Positions 1 through 55,318 of a stretch of DNA of 64,000 nucleotides are shown here, one piece after another. How positions within the stretch are numbered: position 1 is the stretch's first letter; each line of letters opens with the position of its first letter. The position numbers and the translations under genes were made by a program. Under the pieces are notes generated by a model, which saw nothing but the letters and a program-made list of their open reading frames with translations, was not told the DNA's origin and did no database searches. Source of the DNA: Candidatus Woesebacteria bacterium (GTDB lineage Bacteria > Patescibacteriota > Microgenomatia > UBA1400 > UBA1396). The stretch lies in assembly GCA_021208605.1 (NCBI GenBank), contig JAJOJK010000003.1, forward strand, positions 9,481-73,480. The letters are read 5' to 3'.

Positions 1-1588
1 CGATACAAGAGATACCACTACCCATACAAGTCTTTCCATTCGCAGCCGAGCCACATGGCTCACCACAGACAGCGGGAGCTGGCGTGGGAGTTGGGTTGGG
101 AGTTGGGTTCGGGGTGGGATTTGGCGTCTGCTGCGCTGGAGGCGTTGAAGGCTCTGGACTACTCTGAGTTGGTGTAGAGTTCGCACCACAAGACAGGCCT
201 GGTTCAGCAAAACATTCTTTGCCAATTACGCCGTATTTACAGGTGTTGTAACAGTTCTGGCGTCCGCCGTTAGAAATAGGATCACCACAGCCGGTGAATT
301 TGCGGAAGTAGTCATTGGAGCCACAGCTGGTAATTGTTGAGCTAGAAGGATCATACGATTCAACTTTGGAAGTACAGTCGGTGTACAGTGAATTCGTATT
401 CGCCTCACACTGAGATTTTGAGTTGTAACATGTTCCCTGTACTCCGTTTGCTGTTGTCTTACAGTACAAGGTGTATTGCCCGCCAGTAGCGCCACAGTAG
501 TGGGCATTGACTTCACCAGCAACGTAGCCAGTACCTGAACCGTTACAGATTTGACCTTTTGTGCCAGAGGTACATTTAATCGTGCCTGGCTCACACTCTT
601 TGCCATTTGTTCCGACATCAGGACAAATATTGTTTTGGCACTGTTGAGCCACACTGCTTGCACCCCAAGTATCGGAGAAAGAACAGGTTTGCTTTACTTT
701 GCCGCCACAGTTACAAGTAATGACATACTGACAACCGCCATTGGCGAGATTACCGGGTTCAATGGATCCATCTACTACACCGTCACCATCCAAATCATCA
801 CCTACTCCAGCCGTAGTAGCCGGGATAGCGGAACATAAGTTTCCAGTAGTTCTGTTACAGACTAATCGTTCTCCGGCATTGGTAATAATAGTTCCAACAG
901 GCTTTCCTCTGCAGACACTGGCCGTTGGACTTTGGCTAGAACAATTGGGGTCCGCAGCATTATTACTATTTGGATTAGACGTGCTCGAATTGTTATTGGA
1001 ATTATTATTATTGTTGTTATTTGAGCCTGATTGCTCAACCCATGACCCATTTTTACAAGTGTATTTTACGCCATCACGAGTACCGGTTTGGCCATCTGAA
1101 CACTCGTTATTTTTTTGGCCACCATCACAGGTATTGCCGCCATTCTTCCACTGACCAGAACAAGTACACTCACAATTAGCAACTCCGTAATCGCCCTTAC
1201 CACAGAGTTTACGACCACTAACTGAACCACCATTTATGGAATTCTTATTTGACGCACATTTATTGGAACAAGCACTTCCATTGTACGAGCATGAATTACT
1301 CGAATTATTATTGTTAGAATTATTGTTATTGTTATTGTTATTATTATTGTTGTTGTTATTTGAGTTGTTATTACTCGAACTTGATTTCACCCGACAACGA
1401 CTTACACATGTATTTGCATTTGCATTATATGTTACTTCGTAACACTCATATCCTGATCCACAACTAACGCCATTACAAGAAGTTCCACACGTTGCAATAC
1501 CCGCATATGCTTTTGGGGCTGCGTACTGAGAAAGAGCAACAACACTTGCTGTTAAGAAAATGATTAGGGCAAAAAATACTTTTTTCAT
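1..1588 (-). CDS. Cys-rich secreted protein with poly-Asn tracts (partial; 3' end beyond window start)
   Basis: ATG at 1588 (minus) gives signal peptide MKKVFFALIIFLTASVVALSQYAAPKAYA followed by a Cys-rich mature region (..GIATCGTSCNGVSCGSGYECY..). Long (AAC/AAT)n runs encode poly-Asn. The frame stays open to the window edge, which is why it is absent from the ORF track. Confidence 0.55.
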   Translation of the reverse strand, partial: MKKVFFALIIFLTASVVALSQYAAPKAYAGIATCGTSCNGVSCGSGYECYEVTYNANANTCVSRCRVKSSSSNNNSNNNNNNNNNNNNNNSNNNNSSNSCSYNGSACSNKCASNKNSINGGSVSGRKLCGKGDYGVANCECTCSGQWKNGGNTCDGGQKNNECSDGQTGTRDGVKYTCKNGSWVEQSGSNNNNNNNSNNNSSTSNPNSNNAADPNCSSQSPTASVCRGKPVGTIITNAGERLVCNRTTGNLCSAIPATTAGVGDDLDGDGVVDGSIEPGNLANGGCQYVITCNCGGKVKQTCSFSDTWGASSVAQQCQNNICPDVGTNGKECEPGTIKCTSGTKGQICNGSGTGYVAGEVNAHYCGATGGQYTLYCKTTANGVQGTCYNSKSQCEANTNSLYTDCTSKVESYDPSSSTITSCGSNDYFRKFTGCGDPISNGGRQNCYNTCKYGVIGKECFAEPGLSCGANSTPTQSSPEPSTPPAQQTPNPTPNPTPNPTPTPAPAVCGEPCGSAANGKTCMGSGISCI

Positions 1589-2470: not shown

Positions 2471-2578
2471 AGTTAAGAGTATGTCAGAACCATGAGGCGG
2501 ATACAATACAAAGATTACCCAAAGAAAAGTAAAGATTCCGTAAGAATGGCTGATAAAAAACCAGTACAGACAAAAATG

Positions 2579-2740
2579 GTGCGCGCACCAGGACTCACGA
2601 CTGCGCTCATTCCCATTCGCTCCGCATGCACTAGGGTTGTTTCGCATTTCTTCTATTTCGGTATGCTCACCCCGTCGCGAACCGCAGCTTTTCCTCTCCG
2701 CTGTACACACAAAAAAAAACTGGCTTTGCCAGTTTTTTAT
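2579..2740 (-). mobile_element. tRNA-linked ~145-bp element, copy 1
   Basis: Bounded by an exact 18-bp duplication of the tRNA-Ile 3' end (gtgcgcgcaccaggactc at 2579-2596, identical to 2741-2758). Contains an ~85-bp core (2597-2681) 100% identical over ~57 nt to 30306-30356. A bidirectional terminator hairpin (A9-ctggctttgccag-T6) sits at 2712-2740. Confidence 0.6.
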
Positions 2741-2741
2741 G

Positions 2742-2815
2742 TGCGCGCACCAGGACTCGAACCTGGAACCGCGAAGGTATAAGCTTCGTGCTCTAGCCAA
2801 TTGAGCTATGCGCGC
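2742..2815 (-). tRNA. tRNA-Ile (anticodon UAU)
   Basis: Cloverleaf read on the minus strand: GCGCGCA/TGCGCGC acceptor, GCTC-AATTGGCTA-GAGC D arm, CGAAG-CTTATAC-CTTCG anticodon arm (UAU), CCAGG-TTCGAGT-CCTGG T arm, discriminator A. CCA is not encoded. Confidence 0.75.
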
Positions 2816-2889: not shown

Positions 2890-3459
2890 TCAAGCAAAAA
2901 AGAGCCAGGCGAGAAACGCCACTAATCCAAAAGCGCCTAACCCCAAAATAACAGCGCCCAAAAAGGTGAGTCGCTGCGTCACTGACTCATGCTTGTCGAC
3001 AATTTCTTCTAAAGTCGCTGCTTGCTCCATTCCAGCATCGTGATCCCTAACTTTTTCAGTCGCCGACGGACCCTCAAGCTCTGGTAACGTCTGTTCGTAC
3101 GCCATCTGGCGCAAGTCTTGCGACTGCTGCACGAGCATCGTCGTCGAACCAATACCAAGTGCCAATACAAATACCGCCACCATGCCACCGAGAACACGTA
3201 AATCTAATTTCGGTAAAACGCGTTGTCGTGGGGACAAATTATTCTCCCAAATCTCGGTCGCGCCAGCCCGTTCATCTGGTTGCGGCGTGGCTACTGGTGC
3301 GGGAGCGACATGAGCGGAGATATGGGCCATTCCAGCCGAGACAGGTCGCGTAGCACCGGTACCACCAGCGCTCGAAATCTCTGGGAAATGACTCGACTCC
3401 TCTTGAATTTCTTTGAGGAGCTCATCAAGTGATTTGTGAGTCGACATATTGGCATTCAT
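2890..3459 (-). CDS. hypothetical membrane protein
   Basis: Track ORF 2890..3549. The likely start is MNANMSTHKSLDELLKEI at 3459. It has a C-terminal TM helix (LTFLGAVILGLGAFGLVAFLAWLFF). Confidence 0.45.
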   Translation of the reverse strand: MNANMSTHKSLDELLKEIQEESSHFPEISSAGGTGATRPVSAGMAHISAHVAPAPVATPQPDERAGATEIWENNLSPRQRVLPKLDLRVLGGMVAVFVLALGIGSTTMLVQQSQDLRQMAYEQTLPELEGPSATEKVRDHDAGMEQAATLEEIVDKHESVTQRLTFLGAVILGLGAFGLVAFLAWLFFA

Positions 3460-14477: not shown

Positions 14478-14494
14478 GTGAGGGACCGACCCTC
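14478..14494. repeat. REP type A variant (GTGAGGGACCGACCCTC), left arm of inverted pair
   Basis: Perfect 17-nt inverted repeat with 14651-14667. Immediately follows the lysS stop codon. Confidence 0.6.
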
Positions 14495-14640
14495 AAGCTT
14501 TTAATAATTTCTTATAAGCTTTTACAATAGGCCAAAAGCAGGAATTTGCATCATACGTTCCGTCTTGCCCTTCGAGTAGCTTACAAGTACACACTTGGAT
14601 ACATACAAATTTCAGTCACAGATTGCTTTAAAAATGATTG

Positions 14641-15204
14641 TTATAGGCCTGAGGGTCGGTCCCTCACCTGCTTTCTCCCGCTTAGCCACAGCGCCAGCGC
14701 AAATCGCACTAAATACGCATACGCTTCTTCCCGCGGAATCACGCCCTCAGTCAGGTACCCAAACATACCGCCCTGTTGATTGGTGTTCGTTTTCCCTTCA
14801 ATCTTGTCCATTACTTTCCCGAGCTCTTCGCCGGAGGCGAGTCCATCGACAATATACTGCGGCAGAGCGAAGCGGTTTCCAGCCAGGCTTTGTTGTTTGC
14901 CCGCGCGATCCTCAATATGTACCCAGACAATCGACTGTAACTCTTCACCAACAGACATCAAACCGCCCTCGAGTCCGAAAGCCATGTCCACGCTCGGGTC
15001 TGCTTCCAGAACAGCCAGTGCGCGATTGCGGGCACCTTGGCGCGTTTCGTCATCGGAGTACGGCTGATCGCTGACGCCACTCTCGACTGAGTATCCCTGG
15101 ACTTCATACTCAACAGACTCTCCCCGTCTGGAAAACACAAACTCCACCGCCGACTGCACGGCCGCCACTTTTACTGGATTGGTACTTCCCACGCCTATCT
15201 TCAT
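14641..15204 (-). CDS. yjjX: inosine/xanthosine triphosphatase, YjjX family
   Basis: MKIGVGSTNPVKVAAV...SGVSDQPYSDDETRQGARNRA matches YjjX family signatures. The start ATG at 15204 overlaps the sufU stop (ATGA). Confidence 0.75.
   Translation of the reverse strand: MKIGVGSTNPVKVAAVQSAVEFVFSRRGESVEYEVQGYSVESGVSDQPYSDDETRQGARNRALAVLEADPSVDMAFGLEGGLMSVGEELQSIVWVHIEDRAGKQQSLAGNRFALPQYIVDGLASGEELGKVMDKIEGKTNTNQQGGMFGYLTEGVIPREEAYAYLVRFALALWLSGRKQVRDRPSGL
14644..14667. repeat. REP type A (TAGGCCT-GAGGGTCGGTCCCTCAC)
   Basis: TAGGCC palindrome plus AGGG-TCGGT-CCCT hairpin. Overlaps the last codons of the YjjX-like gene. Confidence 0.6.
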
Positions 15205-30186: not shown

Positions 30187-30255
30187 TAAGGACGAGTATA
30201 GAACAAACGCAAAAAAATGTCAGTTTTCTTTATGGTAAAAAAAGCAGATGGTTGC

Positions 30256-30420
30256 AAAAATATTGCAGGCCCACTAGGATTTCACGACTCCGTTCGCTCC
30301 CGCGAACTCCGCATGCACTAGGGTTGTTTCGCATTTCTTCTATTTCGGTATGCTCACCCCGTCGGAACCTTGTAGCTCCCAACCTCTGCGCACCAGCCAA
30401 TAAAAAAACCGCCGATGGCG
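30256..30420 (-). mobile_element. tRNA-linked ~145-bp element, copy 2
   Basis: Exact 18-bp duplication of the tRNA-Trp 3' end (gcaggcccactaggattt at 30255-30272, identical to 30423-30440). Same conserved core (30273-30356) and a terminator hairpin (A7-ccgccgatggcgg-T6) at 30392-30419. Confidence 0.6.
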
Positions 30421-30494
30421 GATTTTTTACTGGCAGGCCCACTAGGATTTGAACCTAGACGAAGGGTTTTGGAGACCCTCATGCTACCGTTACA
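30421..30494 (-). tRNA. tRNA-Trp (anticodon CCA), 3' CCA encoded
   Basis: AGGCTCA/TGGGCCT acceptor (one G-U), anticodon arm AGGGT-CTCCAAA-ACCCT, T arm CTAGG-TTCAAAT-CCTAG, discriminator G then CCA. Confidence 0.8.
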
Positions 30495-30712
30495 TCATGA
30501 GCCTTTGGCTTCGCAGGAGTGTGGCAGCAGTCACAGTACTGCAATCATTTGGCCGGGCACTCGACGCGGAAGTCGTGATCCGTATTGTAACACGCAAGTG
30601 AGAGTTTCAGACAAAACACGGGTGTTCTCTTGACCGCAACACAAAGAGTTTGTTTCAGGACAAACAAAAATGTTTTTAGTGTTTCACTTAATTTGCTTGG
30701 TATACTTAAAAA

Positions 30713-33606: not shown

Positions 33607-33710
33607 GACGGTAGTATACCTGACGGAGAAAAAAGAGCGCAAACAATCAATATGCTCGACCCCTAGACCTCGTCGCAAACCTCAGTTTTAAACCACATTC
33701 ACTCAAGCAA

Positions 33711-33740
33711 AAAAAGATCCCGAATGGGATCTTATTTTGA
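33711..33740. terminator. bidirectional intrinsic terminator (A7-GATCCCGAATGGGATC-TTATTTT)
   Basis: Perfect 6-bp GC-rich stem with A/T runs on both sides. Lies 3' of tRNA-Tyr. Confidence 0.6.
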
Positions 33741-33746
33741 AGAAAG

Positions 33747-33829
33747 TGCCGGGTGAAGGATTCGAACCTACGAAGGCGTACGCCAGCAGATTTACAGTCT
33801 GCCCCCGTTGACCGCTTGGGTAACCCGGC
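33747..33829 (-). tRNA. tRNA-Tyr (anticodon GUA), long variable arm
   Basis: GCCGGGT/ACCCGGC acceptor, anticodon arm GCAGA-CTGTAAA-TCTGC, variable arm GGCG-TAC-GCC, T loop TTCGAAT. 83 nt with one T-T mismatch in the T stem. Confidence 0.7.
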
Positions 33830-33880
33830 GAGAAGTACGTGATATTGTAACATGGATTTTTGGTGGCGGGTGACGGAGCA

Positions 33881-33902
33881 AGGGACCGACCCTTAGGCCT
33901 AG
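33881..33902. repeat. REP type A (AGGGACCGACCCT-TAGGCCTAG)
   Basis: Canonical copy. Confidence 0.65.
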
Positions 33903-33916
33903 AACAAAAAAACCGC

Positions 33917-33934
33917 GGCCTAGGGGTGTCTCCC
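33917..33934. repeat. REP type B (GGCCTA-GGGGTGTCTCCC)
   Basis: Perfect 18-nt inverted repeat with 35299-35316. The pair brackets the glycosyltransferase gene. Confidence 0.65.
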
Positions 33935-35268: not shown

Positions 35269-35298
35269 AAAGTCATTGTACTACAATCGAGAACAATC

Positions 35299-35319
35299 GG
35301 GAGACACCCCTAGGCCTAT
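35299..35319. repeat. REP type B (GGGAGACACCCC-TAGGCCTAT)
   Basis: Inverted partner of 33917-33934. Confidence 0.65.
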
Positions 35320-35335
35320 AAAAAACAAAAGCCCC

Positions 35336-42981: not shown

Positions 42982-44445
42982 TTACTTTCTCAGTCTGTTC
43001 AATACGAGGGCGTAGTCGATGATATCGACGGTGCCGTCTTGGTTGATGTCAGCTTGGGCATCGGTGGTCAAGAGACGACGACGGATGTATGACAAGTCGA
43101 TAGTATTCACTTTGCGGTCACGGTTCGCGTCATAGTTAGCTCTGAAAGGTGGCTCTGGCGTTTCTGACACACAGCTCTGTACAACTGGCTCCGGTGTACC
43201 GAGACAGTAGTTACTGTTGGCGGTGGCTTTACGAGTCTGGATGCCAGACTTACAAGCAGACCACTGCGTGTAGGTGTACTCACACGTCGGAGTATTTTGG
43301 GTGATCATCGGAATAGGACGCGTGGTGGCAACTGGAATCGAGCCATCTGGATTTGTCGGAACTAGTCCGACTGGCGGAGTCGGTCGCAAACGGATAGAGT
43401 TATCACTAATTGTGGTACTTGGCGGAGTTGGCTGAGGAGTTGGAGACACCGACCCAGTAAGAGCACAGATTTGGGCTGGCATTACTTGAGCACAAGCCAA
43501 GCCATCAGGACATTCTGGCATGGGTGGCTGGTAACAAAACAGGCCTGGTTGGCAATCCGCATTTACAGAACAGTACTGTCCTTCTGATCCCGGAGCTGGT
43601 GTTGGGGTGGGTGCAGCCGTGGGTGATGGAGTGGGATCGCCGGGAGTAACTGGGTTTTCCGACACGATAGGAGAAGGTGTTGGAGTAGGCGTTGGCGTCA
43701 TGCGTGGATTCTCGATCGGATCAACCATTGCAATTGGCGTGGGCAGTGGTTGTACTTCTCCATCGATTACTTCAGCACAGATTTTGGCTGGCATCACTTG
43801 CGCACAAGCCATACCTTCCGGACATTCTGGCATGGGTGGCTGATAGCACACTAGACCAGGAGCACACTGTGAATCTTGCACACAGTTGCTTCCGGCTGGC
43901 TTTTGAATACTGACGATGTCATCGGATCCGAGTACCCGACCAGAAAAGGCGACTGGTGTCTTCAGTTGGTCTTCAGTTTGACGGAAGAGAGTTGCTTTTG
44001 AGGTACCTGGGTTCCAGGTAAGCGACAAATCTCCTTCAGACTGCGGCACAAAACTGATGGTAGCAATTTGTGTCGGTTGAGAAGCGGAAAAGGCTTTTTT
44101 TGAATTATTCAGTGTAAATACGAGTTGGATGGTGCCGTCGTCATTGACTTTGTTGACTTGGGCTTTGAGATTCGTGCGCTCGGCGTTCGCAACTTGGACG
44201 GTAATATCGCTCACGTCAACTCCGGTGAAATTGCCTTCCAGTTGAAGGGCATCCATGTTGGCGCTGTTGGAGTTTACAAAAAGATCAATTTTTGCCGGCT
44301 TGCCAGCAATGATTTGCTCGGAAGATTTGGCGGTAATTTCTATGGCGCCATCTTCTACCGAAGCTTGGTTGCGCACATCTTGAGAACTTTGGGATAAAAA
44401 GAAGGCAGCGGCAGCTCCGATCAATAAAACGAAAACAAAGGCCAC
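42982..44445 (-). CDS. surface protein with cohesin-like N-domain, two 37-aa Cys-rich repeats and C-terminal dockerin
   Basis: Type I dockerin repeats DANRDRKVNTIDLSYI and DINQDGTVDIIDYALV. Duplicated C(V/S)xxxxCxPGLxCYQPPMPECPxGxACAQVMPAxICA module. PTPTP linkers. Confidence 0.6.
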   Translation of the reverse strand: MAFVFVLLIGAAAAFFLSQSSQDVRNQASVEDGAIEITAKSSEQIIAGKPAKIDLFVNSNSANMDALQLEGNFTGVDVSDITVQVANAERTNLKAQVNKVNDDGTIQLVFTLNNSKKAFSASQPTQIATISFVPQSEGDLSLTWNPGTSKATLFRQTEDQLKTPVAFSGRVLGSDDIVSIQKPAGSNCVQDSQCAPGLVCYQPPMPECPEGMACAQVMPAKICAEVIDGEVQPLPTPIAMVDPIENPRMTPTPTPTPSPIVSENPVTPGDPTPSPTAAPTPTPAPGSEGQYCSVNADCQPGLFCYQPPMPECPDGLACAQVMPAQICALTGSVSPTPQPTPPSTTISDNSIRLRPTPPVGLVPTNPDGSIPVATTRPIPMITQNTPTCEYTYTQWSACKSGIQTRKATANSNYCLGTPEPVVQSCVSETPEPPFRANYDANRDRKVNTIDLSYIRRRLLTTDAQADINQDGTVDIIDYALVLNRLRK

Positions 44446-44586
44446 TCCTGCTATAAGGCTTTTATTTTTTTTTTACAAAATTGACTGATTTTCATAGGTA
44501 CACTAAGAATTGCATGCTCCGAAATGGAAGTCAATATTGAGAACGCGTTGGAAATTTGCCACTAAAAACCTCTAAGAAAATTTTAA

Positions 44587-44607
44587 CGGCCTAAGGGTCG
44601 GTCCCTC
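44587..44607. repeat. REP type A (GGCCTA-AGGGTCGGTCCCT-CA)
   Basis: Directly downstream of the pgk stop. Confidence 0.65.
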
Positions 44608-44616
44608 ATGAGAGTG

Positions 44617-45648
44617 CTATAAAATAAACTCTAAAAAGTCTTCCCAAGAAAATTTCTGCTGGCCTTCGACAATGGCCTCGTAGGCGGGTAACGTTCCACC
44701 GTTGGCAAAGAATTCCATCATGGCTCCTCCTCCAGTAGAGACGTGGGAGTATTTGGATTTATCGACTTCAAAGTGATCGACTGCTGCTTCGGTGTCGCCG
44801 CCGCCGATGATTGAAAATGTCTTGGTGCGAGAGAGGGTGTCGGCAATGTACTCGGTGCCTTTGCCGTGTTCGCCGTCTTCGTACTTGCCCATCGGGCCAT
44901 TCCAGATGACGGTACCGGAAGCTTTAATGAAACGCTCGGCGCGTTCGTAAGCGTCCTTCGTAATGTCGAGACCGTCTTCAGTGACTTCACAGACGATGAG
45001 CTTGCGGTGCTCTTTTTCGGCTTCTTCCTTGTCCATTTCGGCAGCGAGTTTTCCACCTACTACAAAAACGTTCACGAAATCGAACATTGTTTTCAGGTAC
45101 TCAGCCTTATCGGACTTACCGCCACCCAAGATGAGCGTCACAGGGCGATCGGGTTTGCGGTAGACTTTTTGGAAGGTTTTGATTTCCTTTTCGAAGGTGC
45201 GGCCCATGACGGTCGGAAGAATGAGAGGCAGCTGCACCATGGACGCGTGTTCGCGGTGGGCGGTGGCAAAACCGTCGTTCACATAAAAGTCGAACCCTTT
45301 GGCCAGCTTTTTGGCGAAGGCTTTGGAGTTGCCTTCTTCACCTGGATCAAAACGGAGGTTATCGCCAAAGGTAACTCTTTCGCGTTTGTTTTCGGGAATC
45401 ATTTCGATCAAAAGATCAGTAATGGGTTTGAGTGAGAGTTTTTTGACAACTTTTCCGTCTGGTCGACCTCGGTGCCCAATGACGTGCACTTTGGCGGCGC
45501 CACGCTTCAAAATGAAATTGAGCGTTTGTGCACCCGCTTCCAAACGTGTGGTATCAAATCCATCTTGGTTTTCGGGGAGATCGAGATCAAGTCGGAGAAG
45601 AACATTTTTATCTTTTAATTCGAGCGCTTTGAGTGTGTAGACTGCCAT
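44617..45648 (-). CDS. pgk: phosphoglycerate kinase (short form)
   Basis: RLDLDLP, GHRGRP and NDGFATAHR motifs. 343 aa. Confidence 0.85.
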   Translation of the reverse strand: MAVYTLKALELKDKNVLLRLDLDLPENQDGFDTTRLEAGAQTLNFILKRGAAKVHVIGHRGRPDGKVVKKLSLKPITDLLIEMIPENKRERVTFGDNLRFDPGEEGNSKAFAKKLAKGFDFYVNDGFATAHREHASMVQLPLILPTVMGRTFEKEIKTFQKVYRKPDRPVTLILGGGKSDKAEYLKTMFDFVNVFVVGGKLAAEMDKEEAEKEHRKLIVCEVTEDGLDITKDAYERAERFIKASGTVIWNGPMGKYEDGEHGKGTEYIADTLSRTKTFSIIGGGDTEAAVDHFEVDKSKYSHVSTGGGAMMEFFANGGTLPAYEAIVEGQQKFSWEDFLEFIL

Positions 45649-46652: not shown

Positions 46653-46677
46653 GTGAGGGACCGACCCTTAGGCCTAG
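46653..46677. repeat. REP type A (GTGAGGGACCGACCCT-TAGGCCTAG)
   Basis: Canonical copy. Confidence 0.65.
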
Positions 46678-46690
46678 ATAATTAAAATGC

Positions 46691-46710
46691 CGGCCTAGGG
46701 GTGTTTCCCG
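46691..46710. repeat. REP type B variant (CGGCCTA-GGGGTGTTTCCCG)
   Basis: Adjacent to a type A copy, as at 33881-33934. Confidence 0.5.
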
Positions 46711-48610: not shown

Positions 48611-48642
48611 AGGTGTGTTTTCTCTCTTTTGTTGTCTTTTTA

Positions 48643-48664
48643 TAGGCCTAAGGGTCGGTCCCTC
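48643..48664. repeat. REP type A (TAGGCCTA-AGGGTCGGTCCCT-C)
   Basis: Canonical copy. Merges into the 8-bp tandem array. Confidence 0.65.
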
Positions 48665-48765
48665 TCTATCTCTCTATCTCTCTATCTCTCTATCTCTCTA
48701 TCTCTCTATCTCTCTATCTCTCTATCTCTCTATCTCTCTATCTCTCTATTTCTCTATCTCTATAC
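48663..48765. repeat. tandem repeat (TCTCTATC)x~12.9
   Basis: Ten perfect 8-bp units, one variant (TCTCTATT), one more perfect unit and a partial unit. Lies between the rpiB start and the VIT-family stop. Confidence 0.9.
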
Positions 48766-51774: not shown

Positions 51775-51797
51775 GAGGGACCGACCCTTAGGCCTAG
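51775..51797. repeat. REP type A (GAGGGACCGACCCT-TAGGCCTAG)
   Basis: Canonical copy. Confidence 0.65.
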
Positions 51798-51849
51798 AAA
51801 AATAAAATGGCGGACAAAAAAACTCACCAACTCAAAAAGAAACACCGTT

Positions 51850-52959: not shown

Positions 52960-53072
52960 TTACTGTAACATAATTCTTGCAGTGATTGCAATAATGAGTG
53001 GGTGCGGTGGTGGAGATTTGGCGGATTTTTGGTTAGGGTTTTGGTTGGAGTTTTGGCCAATAGATATTTTTT

Positions 53073-53096
53073 CTAGGCCTAAGGGTCGGTCCCTTT
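53073..53096. repeat. REP type A (CTAGGCCTA-AGGGTCGGTCCCT-TT)
   Basis: Supplies the stop codon and the last six codons (EKGTDP*) of the Nnr-like gene. Confidence 0.65.
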
Positions 53097-54122
53097 CTCC
53101 ACCTCACGCCACGCGTGCGGCACCATCTCGACTAAGTCGGAACTGTTAAACATCGTTCCGTGCTCTTGATAAAGCATGTGACCAGCGAGTTTATTCAAGT
53201 AACTGGCCACCACTGTCGAGACAAACGGTTCTGAAGTTGCCAAAAAGCCAACCAGGCTACCGGCAAGTACATCGCCGGTGCCACCTTTGGTCATGCTGGC
53301 ATTGCCGCCGCTTACAAGAACCAGTTCGTTCTCATTCCAAATGATGTCGGTAGGTCCTTTTACTAAAAATGTCGCGTTCCGGCACTCTCTGGATACTTCG
53401 AACAAAGCTGACAACTGAGTTTGAGAAAGAGGCACCTCACGAATAATTTCTGGAGGTCGAGAAAAACCTGTCGGCGATTGAGAGAATTGAGAGAAAAGAC
53501 GAGCGGCATGCTGCAAAAGTACCTCTCTGTCATGATCCAGAAAACGATGAATCGTTTCTTTCGCCGTATCAGGGAGTTTATGCGACAGGCGGAGAAATTC
53601 TTGGGGATGTGGTGTCAGCACGGGTTTTTCAGGGAACCACTCGGGGTGAATGACTTGCAACGCCCCGGCATCGATAACCCATTTTTTGCCCGTGCCGAGA
53701 GCAGTCAAAACACGAGTCACAGCGATGGTGTCGTTTTCCCAGTCGGCGTCGGAGAGGTCTTCGTGACGAATATCATGTAGTTGCGTTTCCGTAAATCGAC
53801 TGGCAAAATCGCGACGCATACCAGGTCCGATCAAAATGCTATCGGCTTCGGCGATGTACGCGGGAAGTTCCCGGCGCGGCACTACCACTCCGTCATGAGC
53901 ATAGAACTTGGCGTCGTAGAGCAGTTGATTATTCTCGGCTACAGAGCTATAGAAGGTCATATCGACCAGGCGCGAAGCGGCTAAAAAACTCCAGCGACTC
54001 GCGGCGTGAAACAGATCACTCCCACCAATAATGAGCGCTTTGCCATTCTGTCCCTTATGAGAATCGGAGCTGGGAAACTGGAGTTGGCGAATATAATCGT
54101 GAATAGTGGAGCGAGTAGACAT
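53079..54122 (-). CDS. nnrD: ADP-dependent NAD(P)H-hydrate dehydratase (YjeF C-terminal domain family)
   Basis: SHKGQNGKALIIGGS and GGTGDVLAGSLVGFLA motifs. The start was set at MSTRSTIHDY to avoid overlap with recF. Confidence 0.75.
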   Translation of the reverse strand: MSTRSTIHDYIRQLQFPSSDSHKGQNGKALIIGGSDLFHAASRWSFLAASRLVDMTFYSSVAENNQLLYDAKFYAHDGVVVPRRELPAYIAEADSILIGPGMRRDFASRFTETQLHDIRHEDLSDADWENDTIAVTRVLTALGTGKKWVIDAGALQVIHPEWFPEKPVLTPHPQEFLRLSHKLPDTAKETIHRFLDHDREVLLQHAARLFSQFSQSPTGFSRPPEIIREVPLSQTQLSALFEVSRECRNATFLVKGPTDIIWNENELVLVSGGNASMTKGGTGDVLAGSLVGFLATSEPFVSTVVASYLNKLAGHMLYQEHGTMFNSSDLVEMVPHAWREVEKGTDP

Positions 54123-54144: not shown

Positions 54145-55178
54145 TCACTCAAATAAAGAAGGATAGCCTTCCTCGACGGTAGTGATGATGGCTTGCGAAC
54201 GCGTGGCGGCATCTTGAATGAGTTCTTGGTTCATTTCGTCGAGCTCGGAAAAGACGTCGTCGAGCAGAAGCACTGGCAGCTCTTGTCGTTTTTGTTCGAT
54301 GTACTGCACTTCGGATAACTTCCACCAGGCTAACGCGAGGCGTTGTTCACCGCGAGATCCGTAGCGCTCAATATCGCGCCATTCGCTGCCGCGTTTGACT
54401 CTCACGATGACATCGTCTTTGTGGGGACCGACTAAGGTGTAACCCGTGGACAGCTCGGCGCGTTCGTATTTTTTGATGCGTTCTTCGGAAATGATGGAGT
54501 GGTCGTACTCAACTTGGTACTCTTCTTTGAAACCTGGTTGCTGGTCGAGCCAGTGAAGGAACTCTGCTCTGGCCTGGTGGAGTATTTCGCCATTGTCGAT
54601 GAGAAGCTGGTCCCAATAGAAAAAATCTTGGCGTTGTGCTTCGCCTTCTCGCAGTGCTCGTAAAAGACGATTCCGCCGCCGGAGGGCTTTGTCGTAGTTT
54701 TTGCGCGCTCGTCGGTACTCGATGGAAACTTGGTCGAGTAAGGTGTCTAGCAAGTGGCGGCGCGCAGTGCCGCCACTCTGAAACAACTCCATATCTTCTG
54801 GCGTAAACACTACCGTAAGAAGTTGCCCCGTGGCATCGCTGGCTCGACGACTGACACCGTTGACGCGATAGAGACGCTTATTCGTTTTTTTTGCCTTGGA
54901 GAATACCGTGGGTAAAGAGTTGTTCGAGTTTGGTTTCGTCGCCTTTTTTCGTCTTGGAATTTGGCCATGACACGAGCGAGTTCTTCATCCCACTCGATCA
55001 GTTCATCGGTTTGCTTGGCGCGCCAGGATTGGCCGGTGGACAGGAGGGCGAGAGACTCGATGAGGTTGGATTTACCGGAGCCGTTGGGGGCGGTGAAAAC
55101 ATTCAGGCCTGGCTCAAACGACCAGGTGTGGTCGGAGATGTTGCGGAAGTGTTGGAGCCAGAGTCCAGTAATGATCAT
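54145..55178 (-). CDS. recF: DNA replication/repair protein RecF, frameshifted at a T6 tract (plus-strand coordinates)
   Basis: N-terminal Walker A APNGSGKSNLIESL (track ORF 54810..55178) and the remainder (track ORF 54145..54810). The frames join if the T6 at 54944-54949 were T7. Confidence 0.75.
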
Positions 55179-55200
55179 GGGGAGACACCCCTAGGCCTAT
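55179..55200. repeat. REP type B (GGGGAGACACCCC-TAGGCCTAT)
   Basis: Perfect 22-nt inverted repeat with 55297-55318, spaced 96 bp. Abuts the recF start codon. Confidence 0.65.
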
Positions 55201-55296
55201 ATCTTTTTTATTTTCTTTAGTATATCTCAAGAGGGCGCGTTATTGGCAGATTCGTTAGGATGAAAAAATGAAAAAAGCGCTGATAGTATTGGAGTT

Positions 55297-55318
55297 ATAG
55301 GCCTAGGGGTGTCTCCCC
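55297..55318. repeat. REP type B (ATAGGCCTA-GGGGTGTCTCCCC)
   Basis: Inverted partner of 55179-55200. Lies 9 bp from the lepA stop. Confidence 0.65.

Follow-up and report, generated by a model that had tools for sequence, protein, structure and literature searches.

A tRNA-linked module of Candidatus Woesebacteria that copies the 3' end of its neighbouring tRNA and shares the anatomy of the Escherichia coli RtT repeats

Introduction

In a Candidatus Woesebacteria bacterium, the tRNA-Trp gene is followed by a gene-less module of ~165 bp that ends in an exact copy of the 3' end of the same tRNA. The module lies in a stretch of 64,000 nt (JAJOJK010000003.1, positions 9,481-73,480, assembly GCA_021208605.1), hereafter called the window. 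The window contains two units, W-Trp and W-Ile, named after their tRNAs, and a decayed third copy at tRNA-Tyr. The family is seen at three tRNA types (Ile, Trp and Tyr) and in four other assemblies. In its anatomy it matches the RtT repeats of Escherichia coli, which have been known since the late 1970s and whose origin and role are poorly understood. A preliminary description of the window had interpreted the two units as one element inserted at two tRNA genes with an integrase-made target duplication. We tentatively favour another reading, to which we give somewhat less than an even chance: a tRNA-linked, RtT-like module that probably yields an RNA ending like a tRNA and that would spread by unequal exchange and by exchange of interiors between loci.

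Results

An exact copy of the tRNA-Trp end closes a constant series of parts

The window contains just two exact occurrences of the 18-mer GCAGGCCCACTAGGATTT, one in the 3' end of tRNA-Trp and one in the distal copy 148 nt beyond it (Table 1). No further match with up to three mismatches was found in the window, and two matches were obtained in 0 of 100 shuffles. The duplication that had been reported is present, but all the coordinates given for it were 10 nt too low. Read as tRNA, the block is AAAU-CCUAG-UGGGCCU-G-C, that is, the last four T-loop nucleotides, the 3' strands of the T-stem and of the acceptor stem, the discriminator and one C. On the minus strand, from tRNA-Trp outward, CAGU is followed by an intrinsic terminator, a 37-nt spacer, an 82-nt core, the 18-nt copy and AAUAUUUUU.

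The terminator consists of A7, CCGCC-loop-GGCGG and T6 (A6/CCGCC-loop-GGCGG/U7 in the minus-strand reading), and the expected A7-hairpin-T6 arrangement was recovered, scoring on both strands. The end of the spacer, CAAGG-TTC, resembles the T-stem 5' strand and the first three T-loop nucleotides. The spacer also contains GTGCGCA (30387-30393), a sequence that suits the tRNA-Ile acceptor 3' strand and not that of tRNA-Trp. Within the core, a variable patch forms the hairpin GTTCGC-TCCC-GCGAAC (30292-30307). This hairpin is formed only in the Trp copy, as had been noticed before.

Beyond the tail of W-Trp, the suhB-like gene has its own promoter (CTGACA-17-TATACT, 30195-30223), so the unit is not the promoter of that gene. 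The adjoining SuhB-like protein is 100% identical to a Candidatus Woesebacteria protein in GCA_021208925.1 and GCA_021208155.1. Small open reading frames (ORFs) inside the unit were rejected as genes, with no conservation between copies. An inverted repeat flanking the tRNA-Trp gene, GGATCACGACTTCC (~30567-30581), was also set aside: it is absent at tRNA-Ile and is probably a promoter-proximal similarity.

The same module behind tRNA-Ile and its remnant behind tRNA-Tyr

W-Ile has the same order of parts as W-Trp, with 144 nt between the tRNA end and its duplicate. The 18-mer is here GTGCGCGCACCAGGACTC, and the distal copy extends to 20 nt (2577-2596) when the mature CCA end is counted. As in W-Trp, the duplicated piece begins in the T-loop, like classical tRNA att (attachment site) cores. 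GTGTGTA, at the start of the W-Ile spacer, can pair with the acceptor 3' strand at 7/7 positions, of which three are G-U. The tRNA-end copy together with its T-run scores as a second terminator (2577-2590), and the unit is thus bracketed by two terminator-like sites. The TAT (UAU) anticodon of this tRNA-Ile is, to our knowledge, an uncommon way to read AUA in bacteria.

That the two copies share a core is borne out by an identity of 89% over the common region (30282-30364 against 2595-2677), which includes a stretch of 58/58 identical nucleotides (30307-30364 and 2620-2677). The similarity is very uneven: next to this stretch, the spacers are roughly 70% identical (by eye) and the variable patches about 50%. 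Because of this unevenness, W-Trp and W-Ile do not appear as two recent insertions of one unit.

The third copy follows tRNA-Tyr after a terminator of the same kind. Its 27-nt spacer holds CTTGAGTGAATG, with 9/12 pairs to the tRNA-Tyr end, and the first 30 nt of the core have their counterpart in GGTTTGCGACGAGG...GAGCATATTG (33648-33687). The nhmmer match has an E-value of 2.8 over all sequence, while place, strand and spacing from the terminator are those predicted by the family. The remaining core and a distal tRNA-end copy were not found behind the window tRNA-Tyr, and for this reason we regard it as a decayed member.

Units in relatives

One close relative, the locus L019 (GCA_964447905.1), encodes an MscL 88% identical to that of the window in the same gene order. 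Behind its tRNA-Tyr lies a complete unit with terminator, spacer, GGTTCG, core and an exact 17-nt tRNA-Tyr end (266-282 versus 97-113). In our own reading of the alignment, ~10% of the positions of this core differ from the window cores. A second terminator, a spacer and GGTTCGCG follow (283-351), and there the homology ends. L019 is thus an array of 1.5 head-to-tail units, while the window, L007 and L026 have single units. L007 and L026 belong to more distant relatives, in which tRNA-Trp is followed by a terminator, ~115-140 nt and an exact tRNA-end copy (16 nt, 158 nt from the original, in L007; 22 nt, 178 nt away, in L026). Their inserts fold strongly (z = -4.5 in L007 and -2.9 in L026) and show no significant sequence similarity to the window core, and homology among the core of the window and L019, the inserts of L007 and L026, and the E. 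coli insert was rejected as not significant.

Direct repeats of a tRNA 3' end are also the usual signature of genomic islands, and the units could be independent decayed scars of larger islands or prophages of which only the two att-flanking arms are left. The visibly decaying copy at tRNA-Tyr agrees with this, as does another short tRNA-end duplication in an unrelated Vampirovibrionales metagenome-assembled genome (MAG). However, random deletions would not give the same size at five loci (143-160 nt between the tRNA end and its copy), nor leave a constant internal order, T-loop parts that sum to a constant length or a hairpin with a compensatory change (both described below), nor keep the tRNA-end copy untouched while the rest diverged. 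We consider this origin very unlikely.

The Vampirovibrionales case (L001, JBILSS010000020.1, 455-560) is a tRNA-Ile(gat) with, ~70 nt on, an imperfect 38-nt second copy that comprises the T-arm, the acceptor 3' strand and 13 nt of flank. It is a separate case in another phylum. At 3189-3217 of the same contig, a 23-29-nt match to the core lies inside an ORF; it was judged to be chance.

L008-L010 and L023/L024 have tRNA-Trp or tRNA-Tyr with no unit, in flanks that are not orthologous to the window. In the comparison of orthologous sites through SuhB homologues, synteny was kept only in L007. The 8 kb reached outside the window contained no tRNA.

Contig ends were observed at L004, L005, L018 and L026-L029, where independent assemblies break inside the core or in tRNA-Tyr beside mscL. 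Since they do so, the units behave as assembly-graph repeats that fragment tRNA loci; short-read contigs of the same species end within the core, which is how assemblers handle repeats. At one such end (L018 1-110 versus window 2577-2680), from the other NCBI assembly of this species, the copy-1 core shows indels and differs in homopolymer length; these differences resemble sequencing errors more than a true variant.

The insert splits a T-loop

In all five Woesebacteria units, the insert is directly preceded by the end of a T-stem 5' strand and the first T-loop nucleotides: CAAGG-TTC in W-Trp, TGCGG-TTCG in W-Ile, TAAGG-TTCG in L019, GTAGG-TTCGA in L007 and TAAGG-TT in L026. It is followed by the rest of the T-loop, in the tRNA-end copy. 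The T-loop nucleotides to its left and right number 3+4 in W-Trp, 4+4 in W-Ile, 4+3 at the tRNA-Tyr of L019, 5+1 and 2+5 at the tRNA-Trp of L007 and L026, and 5+3 in the E. coli RtT unit. The two parts sum to 7±1 in the five Woesebacteria units (7, 8, 7, 6 and 7) as well as in E. coli, and a T-loop has 7 nt. The insert, of 67-95 nt, therefore interrupts the T-loop of a sequence that resembles a T-arm.

At its start, the spacer carries a degenerate complement to the 3' strands of the T-stem and the acceptor (9-10/12 pairs). Among four candidate tRNA ends, the cognate one scores best in 5/6 units; the exception is W-Trp, which scores best with Ile. The shuffle p values of this pairing are 0.03-0.13 per unit, and their Fisher combination over three independent lineages is ~0.007. 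Two other origins of the spacer and the unit were considered and dropped. That the spacer is a decayed 5' part of the cognate tRNA is weakly supported (p=0.02 for Ile, while the Trp spacer resembles tRNA-Ile, p=0.007). A retrovirus-like primer-binding site or an RNA-mediated origin is suggested only by the Ile copy, which enters the unencoded CCA (20/20) and is compatible with chance.

The RtT repeats of E. coli have the same anatomy

The tyrT-tyrV locus of E. coli K-12 (L025, NC_000913.3 1286700-1287330) contains three units at 178-bp spacing, each ending in the tRNA-Tyr 3' end. They are annotated as rttR, a gene with reported stringent-response phenotypes, and, as a positive control, match the Rfam RtT family RF00391 with 134-137 bits. 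In DNA, each unit reads ...GGGGAAGGAT...CCAAGGTTCGA, 67-nt GC-rich hairpins, AATCCTTCCCCCACCACCA; as RNA, it is ...GGGGAAGGAU...CCAAGG-UUCGA, 67 nt of GC-rich hairpins, AAUCCUUCCCCCACCACCA. The units reach 19 nt into the 3' end of tRNA-Tyr (tyrV), and the Rfam consensus has the outer helix GgGaaGG/CCuuCcC. By sequence search, matching E. coli genomes have 1-10 units; 688/5426 genomes gave no match, and 18 places are on plasmids. This spread in copy number fits unequal exchange between repeats.

On each structural criterion tested the Woesebacteria units appear to be of the RtT kind, less clearly so for the outer helix and for tandem repetition, and by sequence and covariance model they are not members of the family. 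The Rfam scan of the window and the units gave tRNA matches only, besides weak ones to RNAI, AgrB and Atu_C8 (25.9 bits), which were discarded as driven by the terminator or the tRNA end.

Recombinases, long forms and the integrase account

The 50 ORFs scanned against Pfam, which are every non-overlapping ORF of at least 160 aa in the 64 kb, encode housekeeping proteins and many unknowns. None matched an integrase, resolvase, transposase, Cas1, TnpB or reverse transcriptase, in agreement with the earlier remark that no integrase lies nearby. Nothing is encoded in the interval between the tRNA-end repeats. The core patterns are absent from IMG/VR and from phage and plasmid collections; in the viral collections, the tRNA-Ile end gave no match and the tRNA-Trp end matched only phage tRNA arrays. 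Genome and metagenome scans with core 19-21-mers gave one match each, one in L001 (inside an ORF) and one in L006 (a GC-rich contig), and neither was accepted as a family member, both being judged chance. The core stretch used as probe differs from L019 at two positions, and GAGCATACCGAAATA-N-AAGAAATGCGA is a better probe.

The feature is thus confirmed as a genuine repeated element that copies a tRNA end and has no integrase nearby. What stood of the preliminary interpretation is one element at two tRNAs with exact cognate tRNA ends; the integrase-made target duplication found no support in the form proposed. The termini proposed for it, ACGACT... to ...TTTTTTA, explain neither the RGGTTC(G) before the core nor the complement in the spacer. 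The integrase account is not supported as it stands because RGGTTC(G) adjoins the core, so that removal of the core would rebuild a 7-nt T-loop, because the start of the spacer is a degenerate complement of the duplicated tRNA end, because the relative L019 has 1.5 head-to-tail units, and because the 178-bp RtT repeats of E. coli have the same anatomy. The element is best filed as an RtT-type variant rather than as an att-flanked insertion.

A more general form of the insertion view deserves separate weighing. The ~150-bp unit of terminator, spacer and core could be a miniature non-autonomous integrative element, similar to cis-mobilizable elements (CIMEs) or miniature inverted-repeat transposable elements (MITEs), inserted at the tRNA 3' end by a recombinase acting in trans. 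The 17-22-nt repeats would then be attL/attR cores or a long target-site duplication, repeated insertion would produce tandem units, and the empty site would join tRNA-Trp ...GGGCCTGC directly to AATATTTTTGC. The direct repeats run from the T-loop to 1-4 nt past the discriminator, which is the P4-type att geometry that Williams reportedly described in 2002 for tRNA 3' ends. Six Woesebacteria tRNA-end copies have 0 mismatches while the adjacent sequence diverged, one core is shared by units at Ile, Trp and Tyr, and a unit that had jumped to a new tRNA and duplicated its end afresh would be expected to retain its old spacer, as W-Trp does with its spacer of Ile type. The patchy presence among relatives (L008 and L023 have tRNA-Trp or tRNA-Tyr with no unit), the terminator that every unit supplies for the rebuilt tRNA and the resemblance of L019 to an accretion of units at one site also agree with insertion.

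Against such an element, however, stand the lack of integrase, transposase and Cas1 domains in the 64 kb and of the core in the IMG/VR, phage and plasmid collections. No terminal inverted repeats are formed by the ends (CAGTAAAAAA.../...GGAGTCGTG and ATAAAAAA.../...CAGTCGTG), and the repeat length varies from 16 to 22 nt, versus the fixed-length duplication expected of a MITE, a DDE transposon or a casposon derivative. Insertion predicts neither RGGTTC(G) before the core, nor the T-loop sum, nor the spacer complement; the uneven similarity of W-Trp and W-Ile (58/58 in the core stretch versus roughly 70% by eye and ~50% elsewhere) does not suit it, and E. coli RtT shares the anatomy with no known recombinase. 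On balance we think a miniature element unlikely, though it keeps an appreciable share of probability.

RNA structure and the possibility of a folded DNA site

The non-Watson-Crick positions of the helix between spacer and tRNA end are 11 G-U versus 2 A-C, which argues that the helix works on the tRNA-sense strand. In 5/5 units, folding is more favourable for the sense than for the antisense strand, by 3-16 kcal/mol. The core contains the hairpin GGG-GU-GA-GCAU [15-nt loop] AUGC-GA-(A)AC-AA-CCC, 100% paired in all three close copies (W-Trp, W-Ile and L019). In L019 the hairpin stays paired although its sequence differs: a double change has turned a G-C pair into A-U, and an inserted C is matched by a G in place of an A. 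These observations point to a structure of the sense-strand RNA, or of one DNA strand. We regard them as suggestive, since the sample is small. Co-variation of the variable patch with the tRNA end was rejected (its own end pairs no better than shuffled or foreign ones), and hammerhead or K-turn motifs misfit the core on inspection.

Folding could also matter in DNA. By analogy with integron attC sites or the hairpin attP of CTX phage, the inverted and the exact tRNA-end copies might pair in single-stranded DNA and mimic the end of the tRNA gene, and a host Xer- or IntI-like recombinase might then exchange one strand. The units do have the geometry of an inverted repeat, its arms ~100 nt apart, and the L007 and L026 units fold far beyond shuffles on both strands (z -2.9 to -4.5). 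A site of this kind would explain why only the right arm is exact, being renewed at each exchange, and why units form head-to-tail arrays beside one fixed site. However, no attC-type core sites (RYYYAAC...GTTRRRY) were seen in W-Trp and W-Ile by inspection, the window has no IntI- or Xer-like gene, the G-U-dependent pairing favours RNA or just one DNA strand, and the two window units fold no better than shuffles. This proposal, drawn purely from analogy, seems to us scarcely probable.

Features of the window

Table 1. Positions in the window of the units, their parts and the scattered REP-like repeats
Feature	Position	Strand	Remarks
tRNA-Trp (anticodon CCA)	30431..30504	-	CCA encoded; ARAGORN; Rfam tRNA 58.6 bits
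Proximal copy of the 18-nt block, AAATCCTAGTGGGCCTGC	30433..30450	-	tRNA positions 57-74
W-Trp intrinsic terminator	30402..30428	both strands	directly 3' of tRNA-Trp; predicted as bidirectional
W-Trp spacer, 37 nt, ATTGGCTGGTGCGCAGAGGTTGGGAGCTACAAGGTTC	30365..30401	-	ends CAAGG-TTC (30365-30372)
W-Trp conserved core, 82 nt, CGACGGGG...GGAGTCGTG	30283..30364	-	RNA reading ends GGAGUCGUG; splits pseudo T-loop
W-Trp core hairpin	30321..30360	-	
W-Trp variable patch, TTCGCGGGAGCGAACGG	30290..30306	-	
W-Trp distal copy of tRNA-Trp 3' end	30265..30282	-	exact, 18/18
W-Trp tail, AATATTTTT	30256..30264	-	after distal copy
W-Ile (copy 1) with tRNA-Ile(UAU)	2577..2815	-	same part order as W-Trp
tRNA-Ile(tat)	2741-2815	-	ARAGORN
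W-Ile terminator	2714-2738	-	
W-Ile spacer	2678-2710	-	starts GTGTGTA, ends TGCGG-TTCG
W-Ile core	2597-2677	-	
W-Ile 18-mer	2741-2758 and 2579-2596	-	tRNA and distal copy
Decayed third copy with tRNA-Tyr	33648..33829	-	
tRNA-Tyr	33746-33829	-	
Terminator of the tRNA-Tyr remnant	~33709-33739	-	same kind as in other copies
REP-like repeat sites	14480-14508, 14638-14676, 33880-33934, 35296-35323, 44580-44618, 46655-46709		
REP-like repeat sites, continued	48637-48675, 51775-51829, 53068-53106, 55177-55204, 55294-55317		

Other repeats were seen in the window. A palindromic repeat similar to repetitive extragenic palindromes (REP), GGCCTAAGGGTCGGTCCCTC / AGGGACCGACCCTTAGGCCTAG, is scattered in intergenic positions, often as inverted pairs around an A-rich centre (Table 1). 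One of these sites is adjoined by a tandem array of the octamer (CTCTCTAT)n, with ~13 copies (48662-48765). An ORF with a dockerin domain (42982-44445) has an 87-nt internal repeat (43462-43548 and 43774-43860), 84% identical and 312 nt apart. A low-complexity tract of ATTGTTATT type lies at the start of the window (989-1376), in a region without a convincing ORF.

Discussion

The arrangement of the parts suggests how an RtT-like module could be built. It would be a collapsed acceptor/T-arm minihelix of the neighbouring tRNA, beginning right after the terminator of the tRNA gene. A degenerate 5' strand, able to pair with the tRNA-end copy largely by G-U, would be followed by a short linker and RGG-TTC(G), and then by a structured, lineage-specific insert of 67-95 nt splitting the T-loop. 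Next would come a part identical to the neighbouring tRNA, which runs from the remaining T-loop nucleotides through the 3' strands of the T-stem and the acceptor to the discriminator and 1-4 nt beyond it, and a U-rich tail or terminator would close the unit. Transcription, processing, the function of the RNA and the route of spread are what we infer from this anatomy. The module may be transcribed by read-through past the tRNA terminator, and its tRNA-like ends may be trimmed to give a small RNA of ~135 nt with a tRNA-like acceptor end, as for rtT RNA, of which the conserved hairpin could be the working part. Unequal exchange between the repeated tRNA ends would multiply the units head to tail, as in L019 and E. 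coli, and recombination or gene conversion may move interiors between tRNA loci. Such exchange of interiors would explain the Ile-type spacer in the Trp unit as well as the 58/58 core beside a diverged spacer and patch. It is as if the W-Trp unit had descended from an Ile-type unit.

Several observations weigh against this proposal. RF00391, whose gathering score is 45 bits, gave no match at E <= 10 for W-Trp, W-Ile, L007 or L019; because the Rfam model matches none of these four units, the kinship with RtT is anatomical and not a demonstrable homology. A strong intrinsic terminator separates the Woesebacteria tRNA from the unit, while there is none in E. coli. No promoter-like site was found inside the unit, and with a terminator in front of the module, transcription rests on the assumed read-through. 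The folding of the two window units is not better than that of shuffles (z = -1.6 and -0.2), in the duplex-energy test the unit body paired no better with its own tRNA end than with foreign or shuffled ones, and the support from covariation comes from three close sequences only. Moreover, the tRNA-end copies are exact in all six Woesebacteria cases (0 changes), and their standing beside degenerate 5' strands is unexplained by simple pseudogene decay; this is what recombination or insertion would be expected to produce. That one core occurs behind three tRNAs, and that relatives have it only patchily, likewise argues for some form of mobility.

It is tempting to go further and see here a widespread, unrecognised class, from Enterobacteria to the candidate phyla radiation, of self-propagating minihelix modules that copy the 3' end of a host tRNA and move between tRNAs. 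They could be either new mobile elements, recombinase-independent or mediated by hairpin DNA, or regulatory or decoy RNAs that mimic a tRNA end, with the conserved T-loop insert as the working part. We consider this wider view speculative and rather improbable. In practice, the units break short-read assemblies at tRNA loci, and island finders may mistake them for att sites.

The module can be compared with four known systems. As in P4-type islands and CIMEs, the direct repeats are a tRNA 3' end from the T-loop onwards, the tRNA is left intact and tandem accretion is possible. Unlike them, the unit is a gene-less ~150 bp with no integrase detected in the 64-kb window, the arm beside the distal repeat resembles the other half of a T-arm, and no long form bearing an attP was present in any collection searched. 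With attC and CTX attP sites it shares an imperfect inverted repeat of 60-140 nt that can fold in single-stranded DNA, and units arrayed beside a fixed site; it differs in lacking the attC core motifs and an integron integrase, and in that one arm is an exact tRNA-end copy.

In the rrn operons of E. coli, small RNA genes occupy the interval between dual terminators (PMC8144298), which is a precedent for the proposed RNA. The Woesebacteria module, too, is short, conserved and non-coding and is placed between two successive terminators of a stable-RNA gene. In contrast, those small RNAs are located in rRNA operons, carry no copy of the 3' end of the upstream gene and have no sequence relation to the module.

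The RtT repeats of E. coli are the closest counterpart. We know of no description of them outside E. coli and its relatives, nor of a recombinase or a need for an integrase. Like RtT, the Woesebacteria units start at the tRNA 3' end and end in an exact copy of 16-22 nt that starts in the T-loop. In both, RGGTTCG(A) is followed by a hairpin-rich insert of 67-95 nt that splits the T-loop, and a strand further upstream complements the tRNA-end copy, with the reservations that the Trp spacer fits Ile and that duplex energies gave a negative result. The units measure 158-182 nt in Woesebacteria versus 178 nt in E. coli, and head-to-tail units form the E. coli arrays and the 1.5 units of L019, while those of the window are single. 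Unlike RtT, the Woesebacteria inserts have no significant sequence similarity to the E. coli insert, one insert family stands behind three tRNA types (Ile, Trp and Tyr), and the host, Candidatus Woesebacteria, belongs to the candidate phyla radiation. The anatomy of RtT is thus met in a streamlined genome, at three tRNAs, together with a structured insert that is conserved and indications that the loci have exchanged sequence. If the link with RtT is true, tRNA-linked minihelix modules would be a general bacterial feature and not a peculiarity of one locus, and the Woesebacteria units would provide comparative material on the role of the tRNA-like end and its insert, and on how such a module gains the 3' end of a new tRNA.

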